DNA of 64,000 nt. Source: Chloroflexota bacterium (lineage in GTDB: Bacteria > Chloroflexota > Limnocylindria > Limnocylindrales > CSP1-4). The notes beneath the pieces were generated by a model. That model was not told where the DNA came from and searched no databases. It was given only the letters and a program-made list of their open reading frames with translations. This document shows positions 1 through 33,787 of the stretch, one piece after another. The translations under genes and the position numbers were made by a program. Position 1 is the stretch's first letter. Every line of letters begins with the position of its first letter. The stretch spans positions 5,988 through 69,987 of the forward strand of contig JBJOLT010000015.1 of NCBI GenBank assembly GCA_046045415.1. Reading direction: 5' to 3'.

Positions 1-892
1 CGAAGAAGAAGGGGGTGAAGATCGCGCGGAGCGGGAGGATCTCGTGCTCCAGCTCCTTCGCGACCTCGGTCTCCGCGATGATCAGGCCGGCGACGAACGC
101 CCCGATGATCGCCGCGAGCCCGACGAAGTCGGCGAAGAGCGCGAGCGCGAGCATGAGGATGAGCGCGGGGACGAGCGGGGTCTCGGCGAACCGGGGGAAG
201 GTGAACGCCTCGCGCGGGAGGCCGCGGACTCGCCGCGCGACGGCGAACCCGAGGCCCACGAGGCCCACCGCGGAGACGGCGACGAGGAGGGTCGCGGCGG
301 AGACGTCCCCCTCCACGGCCCCGGTGAGGAGCCCGATCGCGATCAGCGCGAGGACGTCGTCGATCACGGCCGCCCCGAGGACGACCCGGGCGAACGGGCG
401 CGACAGGACCCCCATCTCCGCGAGGACCCGGCTCGTGATCCCGATGCTCGTGGCCGCGAGCGCGAGGCCGACGAAGGCGGCGCTCCCCGCCTCCTCGCCG
501 ACCGCGAGCGCGATCGCGACGCCCGCGCCGAGCGGGAGGAGCATCCCGATCACGGCGGTCGCCACCGCCGCCCGGCCGACGGCGAGGAGGTCGTCGGTCC
601 GGACCTCGAGCCCCACGGCGAAGAGGAGGATGACGACGCCGATCTCGGAGAAGGTGATCGCCGTCTCGCCCGGGACGACGAGCCCGAGCGCATGGGGACC
701 GACGAGGAAGCCGCCGACGAGCTCGCCGATGACGGCGGGCTGGCCGAGGCGCCGAGCGACCTCCTCGCCGAGCTTCGCCCCGACGAGGAGGATGAAGAGC
801 CCGAGGAGGACGTCGGTGGGCGCGCCGCCCGCCGCCGGCGCGGCGATACCGCCCGGCAGCGGCGGCGCGATGAGCGCGAGCAGCCCGTCCAT
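1..892 (-). CDS. Cation:proton antiporter (CPA2, Kef/NapA-type), N-terminal part. The C-terminus lies beyond the window start.
   Basis: Not in the ORF track because it runs off the window. Hand translation of the minus strand from ATG at 892 gives MDGLLALIAPPLPGG..VLLGLFILLVGAKLGEEVARRLGQPAVIGELVGGFLVGPHALGLV..GAAVIDDVLALIAIGLL. The product is multi-TM and matches the conserved N-terminal signature of the Na+/H+ and K+/H+ exchanger family. A GGGGAGGG Shine-Dalgarno lies about 4 nt upstream. Confidence 0.8.
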   Translation of the reverse strand, partial: MDGLLALIAPPLPGGIAAPAAGGAPTDVLLGLFILLVGAKLGEEVARRLGQPAVIGELVGGFLVGPHALGLVVPGETAITFSEIGVVILLFAVGLEVRTDDLLAVGRAAVATAVIGMLLPLGAGVAIALAVGEEAGSAAFVGLALAATSIGITSRVLAEMGVLSRPFARVVLGAAVIDDVLALIAIGLLTGAVEGDVSAATLLVAVSAVGLVGLGFAVARRVRGLPREAFTFPRFAETPLVPALILMLALALFADFVGLAAIIGAFVAGLIIAETEVAKELEHEILPLRAIFTPFFF

Positions 893-906
893 CGACCCTC
901 CCCGGC

Positions 907-932
907 GCGGGCGCCGGCCGTCCGGCGCCCGC
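907..932 (-). terminator. GC-rich stem-loop between the heliorhodopsin stop and the antiporter start. Possibly a U-tract-less terminator or attenuator.
   Basis: Perfect 11-bp stem GCGGGCGCCGG / CCGGCGCCCGC with a 4-nt loop. It starts 17 nt after the HeR stop (949-951) and is followed by the antiporter SD and ATG. There is no U-tract. Confidence 0.4.
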
Positions 933-948
933 GAGTCTCAGCGGCGGT

Positions 949-1770
949 TCAGCCGCCCGGGCGGAGCGTCCCCGTGAAGACCTGCCACGCGAGGAGGGTC
1001 TTCGCGATGAGGCTCATCGCCATGTACGTCTTCTCGCCGGCGAGGTAGTCCTTCCAGCGGCCCACCTGCTTGTACTGGAGGACCATCGTGATCGCGAAGA
1101 CGTTGAAGGCGAGGAAGAGCGACGCGATGATCGCGTAGACGAACGCCGGGATCTGCGCCTCCTCCGGGAGGTCCGGCTGGACGGAGTACGCGACGACGAG
1201 CCCGAGGATCGCGATCCACGGGATGATCCCGGCGATGCACCCGAAGATGTAGTGCTTCCAGTCGACCTTCTCGCCCTTGGCGAGCCGGCCCTCGTTCGCG
1301 GCCTCCATCGACCAGCCGAAGAGGTTCATCGCGACGTTGCAGCCGGCGATCGCGATGAGCGCCGAGAACTCGTTGATGAACGAGAGGCTGGAGATCGCGA
1401 GGATCATCACCGTCGAGCTGAACGCGTACTCCACCCAGCGGAGCGGGTTCATCCCCCGGGCGAGCCACCCCTCGTAGCGCGAGCGGAGGAACCAGCCGGC
1501 GGTCGCGTGGGCGAGCGCGCTCATCGCGAAGAAGCTCGCGATGAACCAGGCGAGCGGGATGTCGAAGAGGGCGAGCTGGACCTCCTCGAGGCCGGCGAAC
1601 GTGCCGTTCTCGAAGATCGGCTTCGCCGTCGTGATGAACGGCGCGAAGCGCGCCTCGGTCGTGCCGACCGCCACCATGACCACGGCCTGGATGCCGTGGA
1701 GGAGCGTGAGCGCGCGGTTCCACCGCGCGAGGGACCGGCTCCGGCCGGGATCGATCGCAGTCGCCGTCAT
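949..1770 (-). CDS. Heliorhodopsin (7-TM retinal protein, HeR family)
   Basis: The 273-aa ORF starts at ATG. It aligns full-length, from memory, with heliorhodopsin 48C12. Shared blocks are NPLRWVEYAFSSTVMIL (counterion Glu, E114 here), FGCIAGIIPWIAILG, PAFVYAIIASLFLAFN, LQYKQVGRWKDYLAGEKTYMAMSLIAKTLLAWQVFTGTL (Schiff-base Lys K257, codon AAG at 1002..1000), plus His25 and His88. An AAGGAG SD lies 11 nt upstream. Confidence 0.9.
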   Translation of the reverse strand: MTATAIDPGRSRSLARWNRALTLLHGIQAVVMVAVGTTEARFAPFITTAKPIFENGTFAGLEEVQLALFDIPLAWFIASFFAMSALAHATAGWFLRSRYEGWLARGMNPLRWVEYAFSSTVMILAISSLSFINEFSALIAIAGCNVAMNLFGWSMEAANEGRLAKGEKVDWKHYIFGCIAGIIPWIAILGLVVAYSVQPDLPEEAQIPAFVYAIIASLFLAFNVFAITMVLQYKQVGRWKDYLAGEKTYMAMSLIAKTLLAWQVFTGTLRPGG

Positions 1771-1864
1771 CGGTTCGTCGTCTCCTTCGAGCGCAACAAC
1801 ATTCCCGCGGGATGGGCCCGCACCCCTTCCGTTCGGCCGCGTCCTCGGCGCGGATGGCTCCCGG

Positions 1865-2965
1865 TCAGCGTCGGGCGACGTCCGGGTTCGGGAGGACGAT
1901 CTCGCCGACCGTCGCGACGAGGTCGTGGTACGACTTGATGAAGCCGCGGAGCGTCCGCATCGTCGCGCCGTACGAGTCGAACTCGTCGACCGTCATCCCG
2001 TCGGGCTCGTACGCGCGCCGGAAGTCCGGGATCCGCTCCTCGAGCTCCCGCACCGTCGCCGGGTCGACCGGCACCGCCATCCGCTCGACCGGGTCGATCC
2101 CGCTCGCGTTGAAGCGGGCCTGCCACGCGTGCGGCATCGTGAGGATGACGTCGCCGCCGACGAACTCGGTCCAGTGGAGCCGGTGGCGGTACGCGGCGGC
2201 GAGCGCCCGCGTCCGGTAGCCCCGTTCGCGGTAGATCGCGTAGGCCCGCTTGAAGGCGGCGACGCCCGCCCAGTTCGTCGCGTCGGGGTGGACCGCGATC
2301 GCGTCGCGCTCCACGAGGACCTTCATCCAGTCGTCGAGCCGCCCCACCATGAGCGTGCAGACGGGCGTCATCGACGCGACGTCGTGACCCGCCGCCTCGC
2401 GCCGGACGAGGCCGCGCTCCACCGCCTCGGCGACGGCGATCATCTGCGGGACGGTGAACGAGACGGTCGCGTTGACGCTCACCCCGTGGAAGGTCGCCTC
2501 CTCGATCGCGGCGATCCCGGCGCGCGTCGCGGGGAGCTTCACCTGGATGTTCGGCGCGAGCGCGGCGAAGCGGATCGCCTGCTCGAGCATCCGCTCCGGA
2601 TCGACGTAGAAGGTCGGGTTCGTCTGGAGCGAGAGGCGACCCTTGCGCCCCCCCTCTCGCTCGAAGACCGGCCAGAGGATCGCCGCGCCGCGGACGGCCA
2701 TCTCCTCGACGATCGCCCAGGTGAGGACCTCCTCGGTCCACGTCGGGTGCTCGGCGCGGAGGGCGAGGACCCGGTCGGTCCAGTGGGCCCGCTCCTTCTG
2801 CATCACCTCGAGGACGATCGACGGGTTCGAGGTGGCCCCGACGGCGCCCCGCTCGACGGCGTACGCGAGCTCCTCGACCGCGCACGAGTCGTTCCAGTAG
2901 TCGGTGAGGAAGCGGTCGGTCATCCGCTTCAGCGGGCTCTCGGTCGGCAGCATCGTCGTCGTCAT
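1865..2965 (-). CDS. Transaldolase-family class I aldolase/transferase (divergent, 366 aa)
   Basis: Contains ATSNPS, the active-site Lys context NIQVKLPAT, and MVGRLDDW (compare SPFVGRILDW in TalB). ATG start, 22 nt after the iolB stop. Confidence 0.8.
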   Translation of the reverse strand: MTTTMLPTESPLKRMTDRFLTDYWNDSCAVEELAYAVERGAVGATSNPSIVLEVMQKERAHWTDRVLALRAEHPTWTEEVLTWAIVEEMAVRGAAILWPVFEREGGRKGRLSLQTNPTFYVDPERMLEQAIRFAALAPNIQVKLPATRAGIAAIEEATFHGVSVNATVSFTVPQMIAVAEAVERGLVRREAAGHDVASMTPVCTLMVGRLDDWMKVLVERDAIAVHPDATNWAGVAAFKRAYAIYRERGYRTRALAAAYRHRLHWTEFVGGDVILTMPHAWQARFNASGIDPVERMAVPVDPATVRELEERIPDFRRAYEPDGMTVDEFDSYGATMRTLRGFIKSYHDLVATVGEIVLPNPDVARR

Positions 2966-2987
2966 CGTCGCGTCCCCATCGAGCGTC

Positions 2988-3827
2988 TCACGACCGCGGC
3001 GCGGCCGGGTCCCAGTCCATCAGCCAGCGGTGGTCCGGATCCACCGTGAAGTGCCAGGCCCGGTTCGGGCCCGCCATCACGTTCAGGTACCAGCCGTCGT
3101 ACCCGGCCGGTGCGCCGAACGGGTGATAGCCGCGCGGGACGAGGACGAGGTCGAGGTCGCCGACCGCGTAGGACTCGTCGAGCGAACGGTCCGCCGTGTA
3201 GACCCGCTGGAAGCCGAAGGCACCGGGCCGCGCGAACCGATAGAGGTAGAGCTCCTCGAGGAGCGCCTCGGTCGGCGGGTCCTCCGTATCGTGCTTGTGC
3301 GGCGGATAGCTCGACCAGTTCCCGCCCGGCGTGATCACCTCGAACGCGATGAGCCGGCCGGCCTCCATCGCGGGCGACATGAGGTGGTGGACCCGCCGCT
3401 CGGTGACGCCGCTCCCGCGCGTCTCGGCGCGGATCGCGTCGGCGGGGACGACCGCGGTCCGGTGGAGCGGGCCCGCCGGGGCCGAGGCGATCGCGACGAG
3501 CGAGTCGCGGGTCGCGGTCGCGGCGACGCCGACACCGGGTGCGACGAGGACGACCCCCGCGGGCGGGCCGTCGAAGACGGACGTCCGCGTCCCGACGGAC
3601 CCGGCGTCGACCCCGTCGAGCTCGATGCGGGCCGTCCCCTCGAGCACGAGGACGAGCCGCTCCCGGCCGTCCGCGGCAGGGCCGACCGAGCCGACCCGGT
3701 CGCCGTTCCGGAGCCGGTGGAGCTCGAGGCTCGTCCACGTCCAGCCGGCGTTCGACGGGTCGACCGCATGGACGAGCGACCCCGCGCCGGGACGGCGGAG
3801 GAGGGATCGGGCGCCCGCCGCGCTCAG
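2988..3827 (-). CDS. iolB: 5-deoxy-glucuronate isomerase IolB. Start uncertain, probably CTG at 3827.
   Basis: This is the C-terminal part of the over-extended ORF 2988..5462. It contains GGNWSSYPPHKHD, LEELYLYRF, FGFQRVYTADRSLDE, VPRGYHP and YLNVMAGP, matching B. subtilis IolB from memory. There is no in-frame ATG/GTG/TTG near the expected N-terminus (xSLLRRP). Confidence 0.85.
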   Translation of the reverse strand: MSAAGARSLLRRPGAGSLVHAVDPSNAGWTWTSLELHRLRNGDRVGSVGPAADGRERLVLVLEGTARIELDGVDAGSVGTRTSVFDGPPAGVVLVAPGVGVAATATRDSLVAIASAPAGPLHRTAVVPADAIRAETRGSGVTERRVHHLMSPAMEAGRLIAFEVITPGGNWSSYPPHKHDTEDPPTEALLEELYLYRFARPGAFGFQRVYTADRSLDESYAVGDLDLVLVPRGYHPFGAPAGYDGWYLNVMAGPNRAWHFTVDPDHRWLMDWDPAAPRS

Positions 3828-5725
3828 ATGAGCTCCCGACGCTGGGCGGCGAGTCCGCGCTCGTAGCGGTCGCGCGCCTCGCGGACGTTCTTCTGCGTGC
3901 TCGCCTCGGGGACCGGGACGTCCCACCAGCTCTCCTGGCCGGGGACGCGCCCCGCGGGGTCGGTCGGGACGACGACGACGGTCGGCCGGTCGCCGCCCCG
4001 CGCCCGGTCGAGGGCGGCGCGGATCTCGTCGGGTGTCCGCGCGGCGATCGCGACGGCTCCCATCGACTCGGCGTGGGCACGGAAGTCGATCGGGACCCAG
4101 TCGCCGACGAGCCGGTTCCGTGCCGGGTCGCGGAACCGGAGCTCGTTCCCGAAGTCGCGGACGCCCGAGCTCCGGGCGAGGTCCTGGATGCACTGGAACC
4201 CGTGGTTGTCGAGGACGACGATCGTGACGGGAAGCCGCTCGGCGACCGCGGTGACGATCTCGGAGTTCATCATCAGGTACGAGCCGTCGCCGACGATCAC
4301 GACGACCCGCCGGTCCGGCTCGGCGAGCTGGACGCCGAGCCCCGCCGCGATCTCGTAGCCCATGCACGAGTAGCCGTACTCGAGGTGGTACGCCTTCGGG
4401 TCCTCCGGCCGCCAGAGCTTCAGGAGGTCGCCCGGGAGGCTCCCCGCCGCGCAGACGACCGTCGCGTGGCCGCCGACCGCGTCGTTCACGATCCCGATGA
4501 TCTCCGGCTGGGCGAGGAGGCCGCCGTCGGCCGCGGCCGCCCCGCCGCTCCCGTGACGGTACCCGTCGACGCGGGCCTCCCACGTCCGCTTCTCCTCGGC
4601 GACCCGCTCCCGATAGCGGGGATCGGTCCCGGTCCAGCCGGCGGAGCGGAGCGCGGTCGCGAGCGCGACGAGGGCCTCGCGCGCGTCGGCGACGAGCGGC
4701 GTCGCCCGCATCTTCGCCGCGTCCATCCCGCCGATGTTGATCCCGATGAACGAGACGTCCGGATCCTGGAAGGCGGTCCGCGAGGCGGTGACGAAGTCGC
4801 CGAGCCGGCACCCCACCGAGACGACGAGGTCGGCGTCCCGTGCGAGCCGGTTCGCGGCGAGGCCGCCGGCGGACCCGACCGGGCCGACGTTCCACGGGTG
4901 GTCCCACGGGAGCGCGCCCTTCCCGGCCTGGCTCTCGGCGACGGGGATCCCGAAGTCGGTCGCGAGGGCGTCGAGCGCGGCGGACGCCTCGGCGTAGATG
5001 ACGCCGCCGCCGGCGACGACGATCGGCCGCTTCGCCGCCCGGATCCGCTCCACCGCCTCCGCGACGAACGCGGGCTCGGGGAGCGGCCGCCGGATCCGCC
5101 AGACCCGCTTCTCGAGGAACGAGACCGGCCAGTCGTACGCCTCCGCCTGGACGTCCTCCGGGAGGCTGATCGTCACCGCGCCCGTCTCGGCGGGGTCGGT
5201 GAGGATCCGGAACGCCTCGGGGAGGCTCGAGAGGAGCTGTTCCGGGCGGGAGATCCGGTCGAAGTAGCGCGAGACCGGCCGGAAGGCGTCGTTCGCGCTC
5301 ACGTCGCGCTCCACCGGGTGCTCGATCTGCTGGAGGACCGGATCGACGAGCCGGTTCGCGAAGTAGTCGGACGGGAGAAGGAGGACCGGGAGCCGGTTCA
5401 CCGTCGCGGTCGCGGCGCCGGTCACCATGTTCGTCGCCCCGGGCCCGATCGACGAGGTGCACGCGTAGGCGCGGAGCCGGTTCGCGTGCTTCGCGAAGGC
5501 GGTCGCGACGTGGACCTGCCCCTGCTCGTTCTGCGGCCGGTAGTACGGGAGCGCGACCTCGTCGCCGAGCTCCTCGAGCGCCTGGCCGAAGCCGGCGACG
5601 TTGCCGTGGCCGAAGATCCCCCAGACCCCGGCGATGAAGCGCCCCTCGCGTCCGTCCCGCTCGACGTGCTGCGCCGCGAGGTGGCGGACGAGCGCCTGCC
5701 CGACCGTGAGCCGTACCGTCTTCAC
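3824..5725 (-). CDS. iolD: 3D-(3,5/4)-trihydroxycyclohexane-1,2-dione acylhydrolase IolD (ThDP enzyme)
   Basis: 633 aa with a GTG start and an AGGAG SD. The N-terminus VRLTVGQALVRHL..GIFGHGNVAGFGQALEE and the block GSLPGDLLKLW..YHLEYGYSCMGYEIAAGLG..GDGSYLMMNSE match IolD. Confidence 0.9.
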   Translation of the reverse strand: MKTVRLTVGQALVRHLAAQHVERDGREGRFIAGVWGIFGHGNVAGFGQALEELGDEVALPYYRPQNEQGQVHVATAFAKHANRLRAYACTSSIGPGATNMVTGAATATVNRLPVLLLPSDYFANRLVDPVLQQIEHPVERDVSANDAFRPVSRYFDRISRPEQLLSSLPEAFRILTDPAETGAVTISLPEDVQAEAYDWPVSFLEKRVWRIRRPLPEPAFVAEAVERIRAAKRPIVVAGGGVIYAEASAALDALATDFGIPVAESQAGKGALPWDHPWNVGPVGSAGGLAANRLARDADLVVSVGCRLGDFVTASRTAFQDPDVSFIGINIGGMDAAKMRATPLVADAREALVALATALRSAGWTGTDPRYRERVAEEKRTWEARVDGYRHGSGGAAAADGGLLAQPEIIGIVNDAVGGHATVVCAAGSLPGDLLKLWRPEDPKAYHLEYGYSCMGYEIAAGLGVQLAEPDRRVVVIVGDGSYLMMNSEIVTAVAERLPVTIVVLDNHGFQCIQDLARSSGVRDFGNELRFRDPARNRLVGDWVPIDFRAHAESMGAVAIAARTPDEIRAALDRARGGDRPTVVVVPTDPAGRVPGQESWWDVPVPEASTQKNVREARDRYERGLAAQRRELI

Positions 5726-5771
5726 CCGATGCTCCTCTCGCGTCGCGACCCGCCGGGACGGACCGCTCGCG

Positions 5772-6776
5772 TCAGCGGTTCTTCCGCTCGTCGATGATGA
5801 TCGCGGCGACGATGATCACGCCCTTGACGACCTGCTGGTAGAAGGGCGAGACGTTCAGCAGGTCGAGGCCGTTGTTCATCACGCCGATGATCAGCGCTCC
5901 GACGACGGTCCCCCAGACGGTCCCGATCCCGCCCGCGAAGCTCGTCCCGCCGATGACGGCGGCCGCGATCGCGTCGAGTTCGTACCCCATCCCGAGGGCC
6001 GGCGTCGCCGACTCGACCCGGGCGGTGAGGACGACGCCGCCGAGGCCCGCGAGGAGCCCGGAGATCATGTAGATGAAGACCTTCGTCCGCGCGACGTTGA
6101 TCCCGGAGACCCGCGCCGCGGTCTCGTTCCCGCCGATCGCGTAGATGTGGCGGCCGAAGCGCGTGAAGTTCAGCATCACGTGCATGAGGACGACGACCGA
6201 GAGGAAGACGACGATCGGGACGGGGATCCCGAGGAGGTCGCCGCCGCCGATCCAGAGGAAGTCCTCGTTCAGCGTCGAGACCGGCCGCCCGTTCGAGTAG
6301 ATGTACCCGAAGCCGCGGGCCGCCGTCATCATCCCGAGCGTCGCGATGAACGGCGGGATCCTGAAGCCCGCGATGAGGAGGCCGTTCGTCATCCCGAGGA
6401 GGAGTCCGACGCCGAGGCCCGCGAGGACGGCGACGATCCCCGGGAGCTCGAGGCCCGGGTAGAGCGCCTGCTTCCAGCCGGGCTGCTGCACGAGGCTCGC
6501 GGCGACGAGCGCCGAGAAGCCGAGGATCGACCCGAGGGAGAGGTCGATCCCGAGCGTGATGATGCAGAGCATGACGCCGAGCGCGAGCAGGCCGATGACG
6601 GAGATCTGGCGCACGACGTTCAGCAGGTTCTGGCCCTGGACGAACGAGTTGTTCGGGGAGAAGACGGCGAGGATCGTGCACATCCCGAGGAAGATGAAGA
6701 CGATCAGGTACTTCCTCACGAAGCCGCTCGCGGCGGTCCGGTCGAAGCGGCCGGCGGCGGCCGGGGCAGCGGTCAT
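5772..6776 (-). CDS. Sugar ABC transporter permease (RbsC/IatP-like)
   Basis: 334 aa and multi-TM, with the typical AraH/RbsC family pattern (GIDLSLGS, NGRPV, ETAARVSGINV). GGAGGAAGAGG SD. Confidence 0.9.
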   Translation of the reverse strand: MTAAPAAAGRFDRTAASGFVRKYLIVFIFLGMCTILAVFSPNNSFVQGQNLLNVVRQISVIGLLALGVMLCIITLGIDLSLGSILGFSALVAASLVQQPGWKQALYPGLELPGIVAVLAGLGVGLLLGMTNGLLIAGFRIPPFIATLGMMTAARGFGYIYSNGRPVSTLNEDFLWIGGGDLLGIPVPIVVFLSVVVLMHVMLNFTRFGRHIYAIGGNETAARVSGINVARTKVFIYMISGLLAGLGGVVLTARVESATPALGMGYELDAIAAAVIGGTSFAGGIGTVWGTVVGALIIGVMNNGLDLLNVSPFYQQVVKGVIIVAAIIIDERKNR

Positions 6777-6791
6777 CGTCCTCTTCCTCCG

Positions 6792-8291
6792 TCAGGCCGC
6801 CGGGGCGGCGATCGTCGCCGCCTCGAGGACCTTCTCCTGCGTCACGTCCGCGCGGGTGAACTCGGCGGTGATCCGGCCCCCGGCCATCACGAGGACCCGG
6901 TCGCTCATCCCGAGGATCTCGGGGAGCTCCGACGAGACCATGAGGATCGCCTTCCCCTGCTTCGCGAGGCCGGACATGAGGCGGTGGATCTCCGCCTTCG
7001 CGCCGACGTCGATCCCGCGGGTCGGTTCGTCGATCATGAGGATCTCCGGGCCGGTGAGGAGCCAGCGCGAGACGAGCACCTTCTGCTGGTTCCCGCCGGA
7101 GAGGAGCCGGATCAGCTGGGCGAGGCTCGGCGTCTTGATCGCGAGCGCGTCCCGCTCGCGCGCGCACTCGACGTCCATCTGCCGCTTCCGGAGGAAGCCG
7201 CCGGGGCTGAACCGGGCGAGGCTCGCGACCGTCATGTTGTCGCGGACGGGGAGGACCCCCATGATCCCGGTCAGCTTCCGGTCCTCGGTGAGGAGGCCCA
7301 TCCCGGCGGCGATCGCGTCGGCGGGCTGACGGATCCGGATCGGCTTCCCCTCGACGAGGACCTCGCCGCGGTCCACCTTCGTGACGCCGAAGATCGCCTC
7401 GAGGACCTCGGTCCGCCCCGCGCCCATCAGCCCGGCGAGGCCGAGGATCTCGCCCCGGCGGAGGTCGAACGTGATGTCCTCGATGACGCCCTCGCGGGTG
7501 AGGCCGCGGACCGAGAGGACGACCTCGCCGATCGCGGCATGCTCCTTCGGGAAGAGGTGGGTCAGCTCGCGCCCGACCATGAGCGAGATGAGCTTCTGGC
7601 GGTCGAGCTCGCCGGCCTCCTTCGTGGCCACGTGCCGGCCGTCGCGGAAGACGGTGACGCGGTCGGCGATCCGGAAGACCTCGTCCATCTTGTGGGTGAT
7701 GTAGATGACCGCGACGCCGCTCCCGCGGAGCGACCGGATGATCCGGTGGAGGTGGGCGACCTCGCGCTCGCTGATCGCCGAGGTGGGCTCGTCCATGACG
7801 ATGAGCTTCGCGTCGTAGGAGATCGCCTTCGCGATCTCGACCATCTGCGTCTGCGCGACGCTCAGGGTCCGCATGACGGCGCGCGGGTCGATCTCGATCT
7901 CCCAGCGCGCGAAGAGCTCGCGGCTCGCGGCGATCATCCGGCGCCGGTCGACGAGACCGAGGCGGTTGAGCGGCTCCCGCCCGAGGAAGATGTTCTCCGC
8001 GACGATCATCTCGGGGACCGGCGCGAGCTCCTGGTGGATCATCGAGATCCCCAGCCGGAGCGCGGTCGCGCTGTCGGGGATCGCCACGTCCCGACCGTCG
8101 AAGTGGATCGTCCCGGCGTCGGCGTGGTAGATGCCGGCGAGGACCTTCATGAGCGTCGACTTGCCGGCGCCGTTCTCGCCCATGAGCGCATGGACCGTCC
8201 CGCGCTCGACCTCGAGGTGGACGTCGTCGAGCGCCTGGACGCCCGGGAACGCCTTCGAGATGCCCGTCATCCGGAGGAGCGGCTCACCCAT
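6792..8291 (-). CDS. Sugar ABC transporter ATP-binding protein (duplicated ATPase, RbsA/MglA/IatA-like)
   Basis: 499 aa with two ABC cassettes. It has Walker [10 protein letters not shown] and signature LSVAQTQ / LSGGNQQK. Confidence 0.9.
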
Positions 8292-8354
8292 CCCTGCCTC
8301 GCGACCTCAGGCTCGTCACACTGCCGCCGGTCACCGTGAACCGGCCCTGAAACG

Positions 8355-8390
8355 CCGTTCGGAGGCCCGGCGAACCGGGCCTCCGAACGG
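8355..8390 (-). promoter_or_regulatory. Intercistronic 16-bp perfect stem-loop with a UUCG tetraloop, between the binding-protein and ATPase genes
   Basis: CCGTTCGGAGGCCCGG cgaa CCGGGCCTCCGAACGG on the plus strand. On the transcribed minus strand the loop reads UUCG. It lies in the 152-nt spacer downstream of the SBP stop (8444) and upstream of the ATPase ATG (8291). Confidence 0.6.
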
Positions 8391-8443
8391 TACCACTCGC
8401 GGTGTTCGCTTCGACCGCCCCGGAGGGACGGCCTCGCGGGCTC

Positions 8444-9412
8444 CTAGTTGGCGCCCAGGTAGTCCGCGATGTTCGCCGGGGTCACGAGGACATACGGGAT
8501 GTCGACGTAATCCGGCACGGTCTTGCCGTTGATGAGGTCGACGGCCGCCTGGACGCCGCCGCCACCCTGGCCGCTCGCGTCCTGGAAGACGGTGACCTCG
8601 AGCTCGCCCGCCTGCATCGCGGCGAGCGCCTCGGAGGTCGCGTCGACACCGCCGACGAAGACCGTGTCGAGGAGCCCGGCCGCCTTGAGGGCGTTGATCG
8701 CGCCGAGCGCCATCTCGTCGTTGTTCGCGCAGACGACGTCACCGGCCTTGAGGATGCCCGACTGGATCCAGTTCTCGGTGATCGCCTGGCCCTTCGCGCG
8801 GTCCCAGTCGCCGGCCTGCGTCGCGGCGACCTTCATCCCGACCTTCGCCGCAACGTCGTTGCAGCCCTGGGTCCGGAGGACGGCCGCCTCGTTCGAGACC
8901 TGGCCCTGGAGGATGACGATGTCACCCTTGTTGCCGGCGAGCTTCGCGAGCTCCTCCATCTCGACCGTGCCCGCGTAGAGCGAGTCCGAGCCGACATAGG
9001 GGACCCCGGCCTGCGACGGGTTCCGGTTGACGTAGACGAGCGGGATCCCCGCCGCCTTCGCCGCATCGGTCATCGGGCCGGCGGCGCTGGTGTCGACCGG
9101 GACGACGACGATCGCGGAGACCTTCTGCGAGATGAAGTTCTCGACCTGGCTGAGCTGGGTCGCGACGTCATCCTTCGCGTCGGTGATGACGAGCTCGACG
9201 CCGAGCTCCTCCGCCTTCGCCTTCATGCCGTCCTGGACGCGGCTGAGGAACGTGTCGCTGTTCGGGAACGCGGCCCCGATCGTGATGTCGCCGCCGCCGC
9301 TCCCGCCGTCGGCGGGGGCCTCGGACTCGGTCGTGCTCCCGGAGCACGCCGCGACGACGAGCATCGCGGCCATCAGCAGGCTCGCGAGCTTCCCGGTGCG
9401 CTGGAACGCCAT
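8444..9412 (-). CDS. Sugar (inositol/ribose-type) ABC transporter substrate-binding lipoprotein
   Basis: 322 aa. It has a signal peptide with lipobox LVVAAC and a periplasmic-binding-protein type I pattern. AGAGGAGGA SD. Confidence 0.9.
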   Translation of the reverse strand: MAFQRTGKLASLLMAAMLVVAACSGSTTESEAPADGGSGGGDITIGAAFPNSDTFLSRVQDGMKAKAEELGVELVITDAKDDVATQLSQVENFISQKVSAIVVVPVDTSAAGPMTDAAKAAGIPLVYVNRNPSQAGVPYVGSDSLYAGTVEMEELAKLAGNKGDIVILQGQVSNEAAVLRTQGCNDVAAKVGMKVAATQAGDWDRAKGQAITENWIQSGILKAGDVVCANNDEMALGAINALKAAGLLDTVFVGGVDATSEALAAMQAGELEVTVFQDASGQGGGGVQAAVDLINGKTVPDYVDIPYVLVTPANIADYLGAN

Positions 9413-9496
9413 CTACGGATTCCTCCTCTGTCTCACCGATCGGCCGGTCCGTGCCCCGAGGGTCACGCGTCCCGTCGGTCGGTCATCGATTGCCGG

Positions 9497-9526
9497 ACGC
9501 TACCGAGCCGGCATCGCACGCGTCAA
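9497..9526 (-). promoter_or_regulatory. Candidate SigA-type promoter for the ABC/iol operon
   Basis: On the minus strand: TTGACG (9526..9521), an 18-nt spacer, then TAGCGT (9502..9497). It sits in a locally lower-GC 228-nt intergenic region, about 80 nt upstream of the SBP ATG. Confidence 0.35.
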
Positions 9527-9580
9527 GCGATGACGCGCGAGATGGCGACACTTTACGGTCTCCGGGCGCGCTCGTCATCA

Positions 9581-9602
9581 CCGATCCGCGACCGATCCGC
9601 GA
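9581..9602. repeat. Perfect 11-bp tandem direct repeat (CCGATCCGCGA x2) upstream of the candidate promoter
   Basis: Read directly: ccgatccgcga ccgatccgcga at 9581-9591 and 9592-9602. It could be an operator, but no regulator gene was recognised in the window. Confidence 0.5.
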
Positions 9603-9639
9603 CCGCGCCGAGTCCGACGGGCGCCGGGGGACGGGGCCC

Positions 9640-10569
9640 TCAGCGCGCCGGGAGCGGCCGACCGGGACCGAGGCCGATCCCCTCGAAGTAGACCCGGGTC
9701 CGGGTCGCGACGGGGAGCGGAGCGTCGAGCGCGCAGCCGAGCATGTCCTGCTCGACGATGCAGAAGAGGTCGCGGTCGAGCGCGGCGAGGGCGTCGAGGA
9801 CCGGCTCCATCGCCGGCTCCCCCTTCGGCGGCTCGATCATCACGCCGCGGCGGCAGGCCGGAGCGAAGCCCCACTGCTCGGCCTGGGCGCGGTCGCGGAC
9901 CGCCGGGTCCACCTGCTTGAGGTGGACGTACGCGATCCGCTCCGGGAAGTCGCGGATCAGCGCGAGGCTGTCGGCGCGGCCGTAGGCGACGTGGCCGGTG
10001 TCGAGGCAGAGGTTGACGTAGCGCGGGTCGGTCCCGTCGAGGAGGCGGACGATCTCGTCGTGCGTCTCGACATGGCTGTCCGCGTGCGAGTGGTAGACGA
10101 GCTTGAGGCCGTGCTGCTCGAGGAGGTACTTCCCGAGCTCGTCGTGGAGCGCCATCAGGTCGCGCCAGCCGTCGTCGGCGAGCGACCGGTCGATCGCCGG
10201 CTTGCCGTCGAGGTCGGTCGTCCCCTCGGGGAGGATCACGACGTACTCGGCGCCGAGCGGGAGGAGCGTCCGCGCCTCGGCGTCGCACGCCTCCTTCGCC
10301 TCCTGCCAGGCGGCACGCCCCCGCTGGAGCTTCGTCTGGACGGTCCCGCCGGTGAGCGTCAGGCCGCGCCGGCCCAGCTCCTCCTTGAGGCGGACCGGAT
10401 CGCTCGGGTTGTAGCCGTAGGGGCCGAGCTCCGTGTAGCGGTAGCCGGCCTTCGGGACCTCGTCGAGGTACTGCTCCCACGGGACCTGCTCGGGCGTGTA
10501 CGGGAACCAGACGCCCCAGGAGTCCGGGGCCGTCCCGAGGTGGAGCTTCGAGTAGTCGCGCGGGCTCAC
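9640..10569 (-). CDS. iolE: Xylose-isomerase-like TIM-barrel protein, IolE-like inosose dehydratase
   Basis: LGTAPDSWGVW, LVYHSHADSHVETHDEIVRLLDGTDPRYVNLCLDTGHVAY, VHLKQV and CIVEQD parallel B. subtilis IolE. I chose GTG at 10569 because GGAGGAGG lies 5 nt upstream. The ATG at 10617 used by the ORF track has no SD. Confidence 0.8.
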   Translation of the reverse strand: MSPRDYSKLHLGTAPDSWGVWFPYTPEQVPWEQYLDEVPKAGYRYTELGPYGYNPSDPVRLKEELGRRGLTLTGGTVQTKLQRGRAAWQEAKEACDAEARTLLPLGAEYVVILPEGTTDLDGKPAIDRSLADDGWRDLMALHDELGKYLLEQHGLKLVYHSHADSHVETHDEIVRLLDGTDPRYVNLCLDTGHVAYGRADSLALIRDFPERIAYVHLKQVDPAVRDRAQAEQWGFAPACRRGVMIEPPKGEPAMEPVLDALAALDRDLFCIVEQDMLGCALDAPLPVATRTRVYFEGIGLGPGRPLPAR

Positions 10570-10729
10570 GTGGTCCTCCTCCGTGCCGCGCCGGCGCCGC
10601 GTGAGCGCGTGGTCCATCTCGGCAACGGGACGAGACGCTATCGACCGGCCCGGCCCGTGTCAATCGCGGGGGGTCGCGCCGGGTCGGGGACGTCGTGCGG
10701 CCGCGTGGCGCGGGGCGCATCCTCTCGGC

Positions 10730-11707
10730 ATGCGCGCGCTCCCGCCCCCGCCGCTCCCGTCCAGGACCGCGTGGCTCCTCCTCGGCGGCCTCGTCGTCGT
10801 CTGGGGACTCCACTGGCCGATCGTGAAGGCGGTGCTCGGCGAGCTCCCGCCGATGACCTACGCGGCACTCCGGGTCGCGACCGCGATCCCGGCGGTCCTC
10901 CTCGTCCTCGGCGCCCGACGGGAGATCGAGCTCCCGCCGCGCGGCGACCTCCCGGTCCTCATCGTCGTCGGCCTCGGCCAGATCGCGATCGGGACGGCGA
11001 TCATGAACCTCGCCCTCCTCGTCGTCCCGGCGGGCCGCTCGTCGGTGCTCTCGTACACGACCCCGCTCTGGACCGCGCTCCTCGGCGCGGCGCTCCTCGG
11101 CCTCCGGCTCCGCCGGCGCGAGGGGCTCGGGGTCGCCGTCGGGGTCGTCGGGATGGGGCTCCTCTTCGCGGCCGGGCTGGGCGGCGGCGCGGGGACGGCG
11201 GATGCGGGCATGGGCGGGGCGGCGGGCGCCGGATCGGGCGCGGGGGTGGCTGCCGGGTCGTCCGGCCTCGTCGTCGGGAGCCTCGCGCTCGTCGCCGGGG
11301 CCGTCGTGAACGCCGGCGCGGTCCTCATGCTCCGTGCGCACCGGTGGCGGTCCACCCCGCTTCGCCTCCAGCCGTGGCAGCTCGCGATCGGCCTCGTCCC
11401 GCTCGCGATCCTCGCGGCGGTGCTCGAGGACCCGGCGACGATCGACCTCACCCCGACGCTCCTCCTCGCCGTCCTCTACAGCGGACCGCTCGCGACCGCC
11501 TTCGCGTTCTGGGCGTATCAGACGATCGCGCGGACCCTCACGCCGTCGCAGACGACGACCGGCCTCCTCGCCGTCCCGGTCGTCGGGCTCGCCTCGAGCG
11601 CGCTCTTCCTCGGCGAGCCCCTGGGTCCCGGGGACCTGGCGGGCTTCGCGACGACGCTCGCCGGGATCGCGCTCGTCGCGGGTCCGGGCCGCGTTCGCGA
11701 GCCGTGA
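10730..11707 (+). CDS. EamA/DMT-family transporter
   Basis: Two EamA-like 5-TM halves separated by a Gly-rich loop. The start is taken at the internal ATG (MRALPPP), because the upstream part of ORF 10583..11707 is Arg-rich and non-protein-like. Confidence 0.8.
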   Translation: MRALPPPPLPSRTAWLLLGGLVVVWGLHWPIVKAVLGELPPMTYAALRVATAIPAVLLVLGARREIELPPRGDLPVLIVVGLGQIAIGTAIMNLALLVVPAGRSSVLSYTTPLWTALLGAALLGLRLRRREGLGVAVGVVGMGLLFAAGLGGGAGTADAGMGGAAGAGSGAGVAAGSSGLVVGSLALVAGAVVNAGAVLMLRAHRWRSTPLRLQPWQLAIGLVPLAILAAVLEDPATIDLTPTLLLAVLYSGPLATAFAFWAYQTIARTLTPSQTTTGLLAVPVVGLASSALFLGEPLGPGDLAGFATTLAGIALVAGPGRVREP

Positions 11708-11795
11708 CGCGGGTCGTACGCTTGCCGGGGCGGCCGGCGGCCGTGCCGCGGCGGTCCTCGATGACGCTGCGGCCTGGCGGATGACGGGAGGGGCG

Positions 11796-13538
11796 ATGGG
11801 CGGAGGATCGACGCGGCTCGTCGGCGTGGCGGCGGCACCGGGGATCGCCCGCGGCGCCTGGGCCCGGATCGAGCGGCGGCCGCTCCCGCGGGGACGGACC
11901 GTCGGGCCGGGCGACGAGGCGGTGGACCGCGAGGTGGCGGCGCTCGCGGCCGCCGCGGCGGCGGCCGAGTCGGAGCTGAACGCCCTCGCGGCCCGGCTGA
12001 CCGAGGCGGGGCATGCCGACGAGGCCGGGATCTTCGCCGCGTCCGCGGCGATGGCCGCCGATCCGATGCTGATCGACGGCGCGACGGGACGGATCCGGGA
12101 CGGGCGGGTCGGCGGGGTCGACGCGATCCTCGCGGCAGGGGACGAGGTCGCCGCGATCCTCGCCGCGGTCGACGACGAGCTGATCCGGGCGCGGGCCGCC
12201 GACATCCTCGACGTCGCCGACCGGATCGCCCGCCACGTCGCCGGGCTCCCGACCGACGAGGTGACGCTCGGGGCCCCGGCGATCGTCGTCGCGGAGGACC
12301 TCCCGCCGTCGCTCACGGCGACGATCCCGAAGGATCGGCTCCTCGGGATCGCCCTCGCCGGCGGCTCGCCCACGGCGCACGCCGCCATCCTCGCCCGCGC
12401 CTACGGGATCCCCGCCGTCGTCGGCGTCCCCGGGATCCTCGATGCGGTGACGGCCGCGGGACACGCGAGCGAGGTGGCGCTCGACGGGTCGACCGGGGAG
12501 GTCCTGATCGCGCCGACCGCCGCGGAGGTCGCCGAGCTGGACCGGCGCGCCGCCCGCCTCTCCGCCGACCGGGACCGCGACCTGGCCGAGGCGGCCCTGC
12601 CGTCGGCGACCCGCGACGGGACGCCGGTCGCGCTCCTCGCGAACATCGGGACCCCGGACGAGGCCGAGCGGGCGATCGCCCTCGGCGCGCGGGGCGTGGG
12701 TCTCTTCCGGACCGAGTTCCTCTTCCTCGAGCGGCCGGTCGCGCCGACGGAGGACGAGCAACTGGCCGCCTACCGTCGCGTCGTCGAGCGCTTCGCGGGC
12801 GACCCGGTGACGATCCGGCTCCTCGACGTCGGGGGCGACAAGCCGCTCCCCTACCTCCCGATCCCGCGGGAGGAGAACCCGTTCCTCGGCGTCCGCGGGC
12901 TCCGGCTCGCCGTCGACCGCCCGGAGGTCTTCCTCACCCAGCTTCGCGCCTGCATGCGGGCCGCGGCCGCCGGCCCGGTGAAGGTGATGGCGCCGATGAT
13001 CGCCGACCACGACGACGTCGGCCTCCTCGTCGAGCTCACGGCGCGCGCGCGGGCCGACCTCGCGGCCGCGGGCGTCGACCACGGCGAGATCTCGCTCGGC
13101 GTCATGCTCGAGGTCCCGTCGGCGATCCTCACCGCGGACACCTGGCTCGGGGAGGTCGCGTTCGCCAGCCTCGGCACGAACGACCTGACGCAGTACGCGC
13201 TCGCGATCGACCGCGGGAACCCCGCCGTCGAGCGCTACCGCGACTCGCTCCATCCCGCCGTCCTCCGGCTCGTCGCGCTCTCGGTGGAGAGCGCGCGGCG
13301 GACCGGGGCCGAGCTCTCCGTCTGCGGGGAGATGGCCGGCGATCCGGTCGCGGCGCTCGCCCTCGTCGGCCTCGGGATCCGCTCGCTCAGCATGGGAGCG
13401 ACGAGTCTCCCGGCCGTCCGGCGCGCGATCCGCGGGAGCGACCTCGCGACGCTCGAGGCGGCCGCGGCGGCGGCGCTCGTCGACGACTCGGCGCGCGCGG
13501 TGCGGGAGCGCTTCGCGGCACTCCTCGGCTCCGCCTGA
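11796..13538 (+). CDS. ptsI: Phosphoenolpyruvate-protein phosphotransferase (PTS enzyme I)
   Basis: 580 aa. It has the phospho-His motif GGSPTAHAAILARAYGIPAV, plus GLFRTEFLF and the catalytic Cys CGEMAGDP. ATG at 11796 follows GGGAGGGG. An alternative ATG lies at 11781. Confidence 0.85.
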   Translation: MGGGSTRLVGVAAAPGIARGAWARIERRPLPRGRTVGPGDEAVDREVAALAAAAAAAESELNALAARLTEAGHADEAGIFAASAAMAADPMLIDGATGRIRDGRVGGVDAILAAGDEVAAILAAVDDELIRARAADILDVADRIARHVAGLPTDEVTLGAPAIVVAEDLPPSLTATIPKDRLLGIALAGGSPTAHAAILARAYGIPAVVGVPGILDAVTAAGHASEVALDGSTGEVLIAPTAAEVAELDRRAARLSADRDRDLAEAALPSATRDGTPVALLANIGTPDEAERAIALGARGVGLFRTEFLFLERPVAPTEDEQLAAYRRVVERFAGDPVTIRLLDVGGDKPLPYLPIPREENPFLGVRGLRLAVDRPEVFLTQLRACMRAAAAGPVKVMAPMIADHDDVGLLVELTARARADLAAAGVDHGEISLGVMLEVPSAILTADTWLGEVAFASLGTNDLTQYALAIDRGNPAVERYRDSLHPAVLRLVALSVESARRTGAELSVCGEMAGDPVAALALVGLGIRSLSMGATSLPAVRRAIRGSDLATLEAAAAAALVDDSARAVRERFAALLGSA

Positions 13539-19864: not shown

Positions 19865-21166
19865 CTACCGCATCGACCAGCCGGCGCCGAGCCTGAGGAC
19901 CTGACGCGGGCGGAGCTGCCGGCCGCGGGAGGTGTTCGTCGTGTCGACGACGAGCGAGGCCGTCGCATAGACCGCCGCCCAGTCGATCGCGGCATGGGGC
20001 GTGAGCGCCACGACGACATCCGATCCGGCGAGGAGCGGCTCGAGCGCCGTCGAGGTCCGCTCGGTCCCGGCGGCATCGGCGAAGCGAGGGACGTGCGGGT
20101 CGTGGTACTCGACCGCCGCGCCGCGCTCGGCGAGGAGCGCGATCACGTCCGCCGCCGGCGAGTTCCGGGGATCCCGGACGTCGGCCTTGAAGGCGACCCC
20201 GAGGACCCCCACCCGCGCTCCCTTGAGGGCGCGGCCGCGGTCGTTCAGCGCCTCGGCGACGAGGTCCGCGACGTGGCGCGGCATCGCGAGGTTGATGTCG
20301 CCGGCGAGCTCGACGAACCGGTCGACGAAGTCGAACTCGCGGGCCCGCCACGAGAGGTAGTAGGGATCGACCGGGATGCAGTGGCCGCCGACCCCCGGCC
20401 CGGGCCGGAACGGCATGAAGCCGAACGGCTTCGTCGCCGCCCCGTCGATCACCTCCCAGACGTCGAGCCCCATCCGCTCGCAGAGGAGGGCGAGCTGGTT
20501 GACGAGCGCGATGTTCACGTTCCGGAAGACGTTCTCGAGGAGCTTGGCGAGCTCGGCCGCGTCGGGCGAGCTCATCTCGACGACCGTCGCGTTGATCCGG
20601 CGGAGGAGCGTCGCCGCCCGGGCGGTCGCCGCGGGTCCGAGGCCGCCGACGAGCCGCGGGACGTCGCGCCGCGCGCTCGCCGGGTCGCCGGGGTTCACCC
20701 GCTCGGGTGCGAAGGCGAGGTCGAAGTCCCGGCCCGCGGCGAGTCCGCCCGCCTCGAGCGCGGCCCGGAACGGGCCGGTCGTCGTCCCGGGGAAGGTCGT
20801 CGACTGGAGGACGACGAGCTGGCCTCGCCGGAGCGAGCCGCGGACGAGCGCGGCGGCCGAGAGGACCGGCTCGAGATCGGGGTCCTTCGAGCGGGTGATC
20901 GGCGTGGGGACGCAGACGAAGAGCCCGTCGACCGCCCCGAGGTCGGCATCGTCGACGTGGGCGATCGACAGGCCGGTCCCGAGCGCCGCCCGGAGCCGCG
21001 CGTCGTCGACGTCGTCGATCGGCGAACGTCCCGCCGCCAGCTCGGCGACGCGCTCGCGGCTCGCATCGACGCCGACGACCTCGAGGCCCGCCTCGACGAA
21101 CGAGATCGCGAGCGGGAGCCCGACGTAGCCGAGCCCGACGATCGCGAGGCGCTGGTCGGCGGTCAT
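19865..21166 (-). CDS. UDP-glucose/GDP-mannose dehydrogenase-family nucleotide-sugar dehydrogenase (copy 1, WecC/TviB-like)
   Basis: 433 aa with [30 protein letters not shown] and [13 protein letters not shown] at 21166 overlaps the upstream GT stop (ATGA). Confidence 0.85.
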
Positions 21167-22380: not shown

Positions 22381-22440
22381 CCGCTGATGCTATCGGCTCG
22401 GCCGCCGCCACCGTGCGGGGGCGTGCTACCGTGCGCGCCG

Positions 22441-29497: not shown

Positions 29498-29525
29498 GCG
29501 GAGAGCCTACCCGCCGCCGGGCGGG

Positions 29526-32005: not shown

Positions 32006-32015
32006 CGGGCGGGGC

Positions 32016-33116: not shown

Positions 33117-33787
33117 GCGCTCGCTCCATCGGCTGGGGCGTCGGCCCGCTCGGCGAGCGCGTCGGCCCTGGGGTCGTACCGGTAGGCGCGCCCGCATCGG
33201 GCGCAGTGGAGACTCGGATCGTGAGCGTACAACTCGGGCTTCCCCGGCGCCGGGTTCCCGTGCTCGTCCTTCAGCCGGTCGCCGCACGCGCAGACCCAGC
33301 CGATCCGGCGGGCCGGGTTGCCGGCGACGAGCGCGTGGTCGGGGACGGTCCTCGTGACGACCGCCCCGGCCCCGACGGTCGCGAAGCGCCCGACGTCCAC
33401 CCCCGCGACGACGACGGCGCCCGCACCGATCGAGCAGCCGTAGCGGAGCGTGATCGGGCTGACGACCCAGTCGGCGGCGCGGGCGAGCTCGCCGGTCGCG
33501 GTGATCGCGCGGGGGAACCGGTCGTTCGTGAGGATCGCGTTCGGGCCGATGAAGACGCCGTCCTCGACCGTGACGCCGTGGTAGACGAGCGCGGCGTTCT
33601 GGATCTTCACCCGGTCGCCGATGACGACGTCCTCGTCGATGAACGCATCGCGGCCCACGATGCAGCCCGCGCCGATCGTCGCGCGGTTCCGCACCTGGGC
33701 GCGGTGCCAGACGCTCGATCCGGCGCCGATCGCGACGTCCGCCTCGATGTCGGCCGACGGGTGGACGCGCGCAGAGGGGTCGATCAC
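33113..33787 (-). CDS. Left-handed beta-helix (hexapeptide) N-acetyltransferase (WbpD-like) with a C-terminal Cys-rich tail
   Basis: 224 aa with hexapeptide repeats (IGAGSSV, IGAGCIV, IGDRVKI, IGAGAVV). The tail is WVCACGDRL...HCARCG. GTG at 33787. Confidence 0.85.
   Translation of the reverse strand: MIDPSARVHPSADIEADVAIGAGSSVWHRAQVRNRATIGAGCIVGRDAFIDEDVVIGDRVKIQNAALVYHGVTVEDGVFIGPNAILTNDRFPRAITATGELARAADWVVSPITLRYGCSIGAGAVVVAGVDVGRFATVGAGAVVTRTVPDHALVAGNPARRIGWVCACGDRLKDEHGNPAPGKPELYAHDPSLHCARCGRAYRYDPRADALAERADAPADGASA

Follow-up and report, generated by a model that had tools for sequence, protein, structure and literature searches.

Gene content of the iol operon

The 64-kb stretch of DNA analyzed here (hereafter, the window) has a G+C content of 70-79% and belongs to a 71-kb contig of a Chloroflexota metagenome-assembled genome (MAG; contig JBJOLT010000015.1). 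On its minus strand, a run of genes from position 10569 down to 1865 encodes an IolE-like protein, a ribose-type ATP-binding cassette (ABC) importer, IolD, IolB, and a 366-amino-acid protein of the TAL_FSA family. This last protein, referred to here as Tal-like, is the subject of the present analysis, as its gene sits in the place of the kinase and aldolase of inositol catabolism. Genes were called with a GC3-based method and the proteins were scanned against Pfam and NCBIfam; the Pfam scan covered 56 of the 58 called window genes, leaving out two open reading frames (ORFs) of 80 and 59 amino acids. A first-pass annotation made from the sequence alone had proposed IolE-like, IolD, and IolB genes in this run, and the Pfam and NCBIfam matches place all three at the same minus-strand coordinates.

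The first gene of the operon (9640-10569, minus strand) encodes a xylose-isomerase-fold TIM barrel (PF01261, 68.8 bits), a putative inosose dehydratase that matches the IolE model TIGR04379 over near its full length at 150 bits, under the cut-off of 290. Its GTG start at 10569 is preceded by GGAGGAGG, in agreement with the end coordinate first assigned to the cluster, and an alternative ATG lies at 10617. Upstream of the operon, inspection of the sequence hints at a possible promoter on the same strand (TTGACA-17 nucleotides-TAGCGT; 10635-10663). A consensus promoter scan did not return this element, and a promoter and terminator scan of positions 800-11900 gave nothing useful.

The importer is encoded by the three genes that follow, likewise on the minus strand: a Peripla_BP_4 sugar-binding protein of ribose/inositol type (8444-9412; PF13407, 196 bits), which is 85% identical to its counterpart in a related iol-Tal locus (L022); an ATPase with two ABC domains (6792-8291; PF00005 twice), which reaches 568-590 bits with the AraG, XylG, and RbsA models, each time under the cut-off; and a BPD_transp_2 permease (5772-6776; PF02653, 171.6 bits). 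IolD, the thiamine diphosphate enzyme 3D-(3,5/4)-trihydroxycyclohexane-1,2-dione hydrolase, is encoded at 3824-5725 on the same strand (TIGR04377, 887.9 bits; cut-off 715), and IolB, the 5-deoxy-glucuronate isomerase, at 2988 to ~3827 (minus strand; TIGR04378, 266.3 bits; cut-off 205; PF04962), where the start is inferred. No canonical in-frame start of iolB both retains the KduI domain and avoids a 103-nucleotide overlap with iolD: GTG 3926 brings in that overlap, and GTG 3647 truncates the KduI domain and leaves 219 amino acids. CTG 3827, with GGGAG 5 nucleotides upstream and an overlap with the iolD stop as CTGA, fits best. GTG 3647 is the start picked by JGI and by a naive caller.

The tal gene closes the run (1865-2965, minus strand; PF00923, 141.6 bits against a gathering threshold of 27) and encodes a predicted Schiff-base enzyme, for which we propose below a transaldolase role on 2-deoxy-5-keto-D-gluconate (DKG). 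Its ATG lies exactly 22 nucleotides beyond the iolB stop, the same spacer as originally given, and the motifs by which the protein was originally recognized are present in the translation (NIQVKLPAT and LMVGRLDDW).

None of the 56 Pfam-scanned window genes encodes a PfkB kinase, class II aldolase, aldehyde dehydrogenase, DUF2090 protein, or regulator of the LacI, RpiR, or GntR type, and neither IolG nor IolA, a methylmalonate/malonate-semialdehyde dehydrogenase (MMSDH), was found within the 64-kb window. The initial remark that iolG, iolC, iolJ, iolA, and a regulator are missing in and beside the cluster therefore holds for the scanned genes as a whole. The window's sole GFO_IDH_MocA gene (30953-32005) was considered as the missing IolG and set aside; its neighbors encode DegT, a hexapeptide acyltransferase, UDP-sugar dehydrogenases, and glycosyltransferases.

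Fold and active site of the Tal-like protein

The Tal-like protein is deposited at NCBI as MFM2105239.1, "MAG: transaldolase [Chloroflexota bacterium]", and JGI likewise annotates a transaldolase. These names, together with the fold and the Schiff-base lysine, would speak for an ordinary pentose-phosphate transaldolase whose place after iolB is accidental. The (beta/alpha)8 transaldolase fold, as modeled, is not in doubt: the AlphaFold2 prediction (pLDDT 90.8, pTM 0.88) gives Foldseek template-modeling scores of 0.80 to 7oey (Neisseria gonorrhoeae) and 0.78 to both 3clm and 3r5e. The best solved relatives by sequence are the transaldolases of Corynebacterium glutamicum (3r5e) and N. gonorrhoeae (3clm), at 80-86 bits and 23% identity. 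Against an ordinary function, the protein fails every curated transaldolase model. The best, NF002881, scores 123.7 bits relative to a cut-off of 367; TIGR00876 (96 versus 234), TIGR00874 (55 versus 396), and the FSA model TIGR00875 (40 versus 246) are also under their cut-offs.

For comparison of catalytic residues, the reference sequences of Escherichia coli TalB and FSA were checked as exact matches to 1ucw/1onr and 1l6w. Lys143 of the Tal-like protein aligns with the Schiff-base lysines K132 of TalB and K85 of FSA; D26, N47, and T167 align with TalB D17, N35, and T156 and with FSA D6, N28, and T109; and R209 and R260 align with R181 and R228 of the TalB anion site, with Ala258 where TalB has Ser226. 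Invariant or near-invariant basic residues (H261, R262, and H264) follow R260. At the position of TalB Glu96, the protein has Gln114, the same residue as FSA Gln59, and at the position shared by TalB Phe178 and FSA Tyr131 it has Met206. Both Gln114 and Met206 are invariant across 84 close homologs and 120 Myxococcota-type homologs; among relatives of 29-48% identity, Gln114 is retained in nearly all and Met206 in most.

E96 of TalB is the catalytic glutamate that holds the catalytic water, and to our knowledge this glutamate is present in all characterized transaldolases. The change from Glu to Gln at this position argues against an ordinary transaldolase. A Glu/Phe versus a Gln/Tyr pair separates transaldolase from aldolase (triad rationale in PMC13259622), and that paper summarizes work by Stellmacher et al. 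(2015) in which TalB and FSA took on each other's activity once the residues that order the catalytic water were exchanged; titles of TalB/FSA variant structures are present among the PDB matches. Judged from the alignment, the Tal-like family has neither of the two established acid-base residues, the transaldolase Glu or the FSA Tyr.

This Gln/Met combination appears to mark a large and uncharacterized TAL_FSA subfamily to which the window protein belongs. A word-indexed search returned 8000 matches, and the best 120 clusters listed are 71-98% identical to the window protein. When the 50%-identity representatives were searched exhaustively, 355 of them matched at E<1e-30, with scores of 170-540 bits, well above canonical transaldolases.

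Linkage of tal homologs to iol genes

Linkage was counted in 80 species-level GTDB genome loci, in which genes were placed by tblastn with window proteins; the nearest genomic relatives of the window's Tal-like protein are Limnocylindria MAGs. In 25 of the 80 loci, iolB is adjacent to or no more than 5 kb from the tal homolog: immediately upstream in 21, immediately downstream in one, and within 5 kb in three, the last being Acidimicrobiaceae or other Actinomycetota. Because this linkage occurs in 25 of 80 genomes and recurs in other phyla, the juxtaposition of iolB and tal is not chance. Gene clustering recovers a recurrent order of iolB, tal, a 508-amino-acid aldehyde dehydrogenase, GFO oxidoreductases, an IolE-like gene, LacI, and iolD. 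The dehydrogenase is a CoA-acylating MMSDH (TIGR01722, 613 bits; cut-off 448.5), and its gene lies directly after tal in 40 of 85 loci.

Relatives of the window operon carry fuller gene sets. One locus (L086) encodes, on a single strand, IolD, IolE, an ABC ATPase, permease, and binding protein, an IolG-like protein, IolG (399 bits; cut-off 355), LacI, IolB, and Tal. Similarly, an Anaerolineaceae locus of 57% G+C (L083) features LacI, IolB, Tal, IolD, IolG, MMSDH, an IolE-like protein, and a second IolG, and all of these reach curated cut-offs except the IolE-like protein. In the closest larger relative of the window (L022), the same transporter has three GFO genes and a gene for LacI next to it. 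IolE scores in the relatives range from 182 to 356 bits against TIGR04379, the model with the cut-off of 290. Genes of the lower-GC loci (L083, L085, L043, and L078) were called as plain ORFs.

A split transketolase, with the N- and C-terminal halves as separate genes, is present inside three Limnocylindria iol-tal clusters (L054, L064, and L077) and may recycle a sugar-phosphate product or acceptor.

The association also takes the form of a gene fusion. On a metagenome contig of 42% GC, a natural IolE::Tal protein of 655 amino acids (P0126; L089, 686-2653) is encoded directly after IolD; its IolE part scores 341 bits against TIGR04379, above the cut-off, and its Tal-like part is 44% identical to the window protein. 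A search with this Tal domain recovered the cultured Myxococcota Hyalangium gracile, H. versicolor, Stigmatella sp. ncwal1, S. aurantiaca DW4/3-1, and Archangium, as well as Bdellovibrionales, Elusimicrobia, and Planctomycetota MAGs. The loci of Stigmatella sp. ncwal1 and H. gracile (L091 and L092; 6347-12074) share the operon order KduI/IolB-IolD-IolE-Tal, and in both a GFO-family gene is convergent to the operon. The Stigmatella sp. ncwal1 IolD (897 bits), IolE (356 bits), and IolG (447 bits) pass their curated cut-offs, and its KduI-family protein has no NCBIfam IolB match at E<=1e-40; the H. gracile iol proteins are assigned by Pfam only. Homologs of tal therefore lie beside iolB, iolD, or iolE in Chloroflexota, Actinomycetota, and cultured Myxococcota. 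In addition, the S. aurantiaca DW4/3-1 copy is annotated "transaldolase 2", a name that suggests a separate housekeeping enzyme. With the failed curated models and the replaced glutamate, this recurrent linkage and the fusion make an ordinary transaldolase, placed after iolB by accident, highly improbable.

The canonical kinase and aldolase were sought in the same loci. Pfam annotation and phmmer searches, which covered ~90 related loci rather than whole genomes, returned no credible IolC and no IolJ of any kind. In phmmer searches with class II fructose-bisphosphate aldolase and RbsK queries against six-frame ORFs (88 loci plus the window, 1.5 Mb), the aldolase had no match at E<=10, and the lone PfkB match was marginal (E ~1e-3) and in a non-iol locus. 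As checks on the queries, the aldolase matched the 285-residue chain 7nc7 over its full length at 541 bits, and the E. coli ribokinase corresponds to 1gqt. Pfam scans of the remaining unidentified neighboring genes returned no PfkB and no class II aldolase; likewise, neither an IolC-DUF2090 fusion nor DUF2090 (PF09863) was found among the annotated genes of the loci. Four operons (L086, L083, and those of Stigmatella sp. ncwal1 and H. gracile) are complete for iolG/E/D/B(+A) and have Tal, yet none contains IolC, IolJ, or DUF2090, and the two myxobacterial loci contain neither PfkB nor class II aldolase. A DapA-family aldolase found in several Limnocylindria loci (cluster C33) was rejected as a substitute: it is encoded on the opposite strand with unrelated genes in between, and it is absent from the same four operons.

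Not all close homologs are linked to iol genes. In a neighbor-joining tree of 85 homologs, most iol-linked proteins form one clade, with the window protein and L006 branching beside it, and iol linkage extends to the most divergent branches (Actinomycetota, L041, and L085). Another large clade, whose members share 63-74% identity with the window protein and have the same active-site residues, occupies a strongly conserved non-iol island. One side of this island features GntR, a 590-amino-acid PEP-utilizer, UPF0261, and a three-subunit Mo-hydroxylase; the divergent side features Tal (at ~10001-11090 in each of loci L003-L005, L008, L011, L016, L018, L024, L035-L037, L044, and L060, among others), MMSDH, a 122-amino-acid cupin, a split transketolase, and a branched-chain-type ABC transporter. 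The MMSDH of the island is 74-83% identical to the iol-linked MMSDH, and one genome, MGOE01, has both tal paralogs (L037 and L054). In both settings the partner that stays the same is MMSDH, which suggests malonate (or methylmalonate) semialdehyde as the product in each. The non-iol paralogs themselves show either that the substrate range extends beyond DKG or that the iol genes can be unlinked.

Alternatively, the window operon could serve a different substrate—another cyclitol, a keto-inositol, or a deoxy-keto sugar acid, with Tal acting on a DKG analog—or it could be a remnant that relies on iolG, iolC, iolJ, and iolA elsewhere. The lack of IolG and IolA in the window, the IolE-like score under the curated cut-off, and the 70%-identical paralogs in an island that also ends in MMSDH would all suit this explanation. 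Against it, IolD and IolB reach equivalog cut-offs, the Tal operons of close relatives also encode bona fide IolG and IolE along with MMSDH, and the three GFO genes and LacI of L022 stand beside the same transporter. We therefore think a different substrate or an operon remnant quite improbable.

Other neighbors in the window are described here for completeness. A heliorhodopsin gene (949-1770, minus strand; PF18761, 267 bits; NF038020, 256 bits) lies 94 nucleotides downstream of tal on the same strand and is followed by a CPA2 cation:proton antiporter gene (2-937, minus strand); the tal-heliorhodopsin-antiporter order is repeated in an independent metagenome contig (L001). On the plus strand, an apparently orphan gene for enzyme I of the phosphotransferase system (PTS) is located at 11826-13538 (TIGR01417, 447 bits, above the cut-off) and is preceded by an EamA transporter gene. 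A polysaccharide biosynthesis cluster (19865-36668, minus strand) encodes two UDP-sugar dehydrogenases, a UDP-GlcNAc 2-epimerase, a WbpB-like GFO oxidoreductase, a DegT aminotransferase, a hexapeptide acyltransferase, five glycosyltransferases, and a 595-amino-acid protein with FlgD Ig-like domains. Outside of the window, a distant member of the Tal-like family (P0128, 42% identical, with Arg260 replaced by Asn) is encoded in tandem with a 456-amino-acid TAL_FSA gene (L090, 7887-10393), near a zinc alcohol dehydrogenase, a LarA_N protein, and an HpcH/HpaI aldolase; this context suggests that further functions may exist in its branch.

A proposed kinase-free cleavage of DKG

In the canonical pathway, IolG, IolE, IolD, IolB, IolC, and IolJ act in that order, and the last of these cleaves DKG-6-phosphate to give glycerone phosphate plus 3-oxopropionate (PMC8355322). 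The presence of the Tal-like gene in place of the kinase and aldolase, here and in four phyla, suggests that the unphosphorylated sugar acid is probably cleaved directly. Specifically, we consider it somewhat probable that the Tal-like enzyme cleaves unphosphorylated DKG, releases malonate semialdehyde, and transfers the remaining dihydroxyacetone unit to glyceraldehyde-3-phosphate (GAP), or to erythrose-4-phosphate (E4P), and so replaces both IolC and IolJ. We infer this substrate, these products, and these acceptors from the observed gene content, linkage, fusion, and active-site residues. A non-canonical and possibly kinase-independent route for the IolB product was already raised in the first-pass annotation, and the gene order, the operons free of IolC and IolJ, the fusion, and the configuration of DKG support it as far as computation can.

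Under this proposal, the ABC importer would bring in a cyclitol, with myo-inositol or one of its isomers the most likely candidate, and this would be converted to DKG by the IolE-like dehydratase, IolD, and IolB. Lys143 would then form a Schiff base with the DKG carbonyl, and the C3-C4 bond (gluconate numbering) would be broken. Malonate semialdehyde would leave while the dihydroxyacetone unit stayed bound to the enzyme, to be transferred to GAP to give fructose-6-phosphate (F6P) or to E4P to give sedoheptulose-7-phosphate (S7P). A single Tal step would in this way stand in for the IolC kinase and the IolJ aldolase, with phosphorylation left to ordinary glycolysis. Finally, an IolA-type CoA-acylating malonate-semialdehyde dehydrogenase, whose gene is absent from the window but lies right after tal in many relatives, would yield acetyl-CoA and CO2.

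The stereochemistry of DKG, which we derived by our own reasoning from its known structure, is compatible with this chemistry. Viewed from the keto end, DKG is a 2-ketose with D-threo (3S,4R) hydroxyls at C3 and C4, as in fructose, and with CH2-COO- replacing C5-C6-phosphate; this fructose-like configuration makes it a stereochemically correct transaldolase donor. Malonate semialdehyde is, in turn, the carboxylate counterpart of GAP or sulfolactaldehyde.

Alternatively, the enzyme could occupy the same place in the pathway as an FSA-like lyase, releasing malonate semialdehyde and free dihydroxyacetone, the latter to be phosphorylated by a dihydroxyacetone or glycerol kinase encoded elsewhere. 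The context after IolB counts equally for this outcome; Gln114, invariant in the members examined, matches FSA Gln59 rather than transaldolase Glu96; and the operon has a gene for PTS enzyme I at a distance of 1.2 kb. That gene was weighed as a sign of a phosphoenolpyruvate-dependent dihydroxyacetone kinase and rejected, since HPr, EIIA/EII, and Dak genes were all absent from the window; the one other PtsI near a Tal homolog (L030) is part of a galactitol-type PTS operon. In addition, neither Dak1 nor Dak2 was found in any Pfam-annotated locus, the protein is of the ~360-amino-acid subfamily-3 type rather than the 220-amino-acid FSA type, and the proton-shuttle Tyr131 of FSA is replaced by Met206, at one of the triad positions whose exchange, as summarized in PMC13259622, interconverts FSA and TalB activities. 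A methionine at this site, hydrophobic like the Phe of TalB yet a different residue, would suit a transferase that does not release dihydroxyacetone. The retained arginine pair, Met206, and the split transketolase of some clusters, which fits a sugar-phosphate product, lead us to favor transfer, and we judge the lyase outcome unlikely, if still worthy of serious consideration.

Several observations weigh against transfer from DKG as well. The window lacks IolG and IolA, and IolC and IolJ may still be encoded elsewhere in the genome, as the scan covered the 64-kb window; the IolE-like protein is under the curated TIGR04379 cut-off; and the ~70% identical paralogs with the same active-site residues in a non-iol island indicate that the family is not iol-restricted. 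The catalytic glutamate is replaced by a family-invariant Gln114 with no tyrosine to compensate, so that neither known acid-base mechanism accounts for the chemistry of the enzyme, and a transferase outcome and a lyase outcome would look alike at the level of the protein sequence.

More broadly, and more tentatively, we suggest that the Gln/Met subfamily could be a new functional class of TAL_FSA enzymes that uses the beta-carboxylate of its substrate, or a new residue, in place of the missing acid-base group. It could represent a third, kinase-free ending of inositol catabolism in at least three named phyla, with the Limnocylindria paralogs serving a second malonate-semialdehyde pathway.

Inositol, mostly from phytate, is a major carbon source in soil and gut. 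If organisms use the Tal route without iolC, surveys and pathway gap-fillers are likely to call their inositol pathway incomplete, and this mis-scoring would touch abundant soil Chloroflexota (Limnocylindria), Acidimicrobiia, and myxobacteria. The proposal, if true, would also correct thousands of plain "transaldolase" annotations, add a second natural transaldolase-for-kinase-aldolase swap after sulfofructose transaldolase, and describe a Schiff-base enzyme of biocatalytic interest that accepts a non-phosphorylated acidic donor with a Gln/Met catalytic set. The cultured carriers Stigmatella and Hyalangium make the route directly testable. A search of PMC full text (7.7 million papers) and bioRxiv, with subscription-only literature outside its scope, found no paper linking a transaldolase to the iol pathway, and transaldolase is mentioned neither in a large iol survey (PMC9430895) nor in GapMind (doi 10.1101/2021.11.02.466981). 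The new element would be an enzyme family that takes over two steps of a known pathway; the underlying logic, by analogy, is already known from sulfoglycolysis.

Relation to known systems

Relative to characterized members of its fold, the Tal-like protein combines traits of two groups. The subfamily-3 transaldolases (3r5e and 3clm) are its closest solved structures and share its approximate length and a similar C-terminal helical extension, but they carry the catalytic Glu and Phe and function in the pentose-phosphate pathway. FSA (1l6w) shares the TAL_FSA fold, the conserved Lys, Asp, Asn, and Thr, and the Gln at the transaldolase Glu position; however, it is a decamer of 220-amino-acid chains with Tyr131 as proton shuttle. 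Of the FSA triad Gln59-Thr109-Tyr131, the window protein has the Gln and Thr, with Met206 for the Tyr.

Within inositol catabolism, the proposed enzyme would share with IolC (PfkB) and IolJ (class II) the substrate backbone, the bond cleaved, and the C3 acid product, and its gene likewise lies between iolB and iolA (PMC8355322). It has no homology to either, would involve no ATP step, and would use Schiff-base rather than metal-dependent chemistry, with F6P or S7P (or dihydroxyacetone) instead of dihydroxyacetone phosphate as the co-product. The IolC-DUF2090 fusion, for which fitness data predict an alternative DKG-6-phosphate aldolase function (GapMind, doi 10.1101/2021.11.02.466981), is also of the class I (lysine) aldolase type, and it shows that non-homologous enzymes have taken over the IolJ step more than once. 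Unlike the Tal-like protein, DUF2090 is related to DeoC/LacD aldolases, and its fusion keeps the kinase and a phosphorylated substrate.

Finally, the nearest parallel in pathway logic is SftT (SqvA) of sulfoglycolysis, which converts sulfofructose and GAP or E4P to sulfolactaldehyde and F6P or S7P and, following an aldose-ketose isomerase, replaces the kinase and aldolase of the sulfo-Embden-Meyerhof-Parnas pathway (PMC7491151). The two enzymes are distinct. SftT is short (the Bacillus megaterium homolog 8bc3 has 226 residues) and 41.7% identical to the Thermoplasma acidophilum transaldolase, and 8bc3 aligns with the window protein over 74 residues (106-179) at only 32 bits; in the window system, the tail is proposed to be a carboxylate and the aldehyde malonate semialdehyde, with Gln and Met at the acid-base positions. 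Neither a sulfoquinovosidase nor a sulfoquinovose isomerase was found in the annotated iol-tal loci. In both systems, as we propose it for the window, an isomerase (IolB in the window) first produces a ketose of fructose configuration that carries an anionic tail, and the C3 aldehyde that bears the anion is then detached by a TAL_FSA enzyme (PMC7491151). An aldehyde dehydrogenase is also co-encoded, in the tal case in relatives of the window operon.

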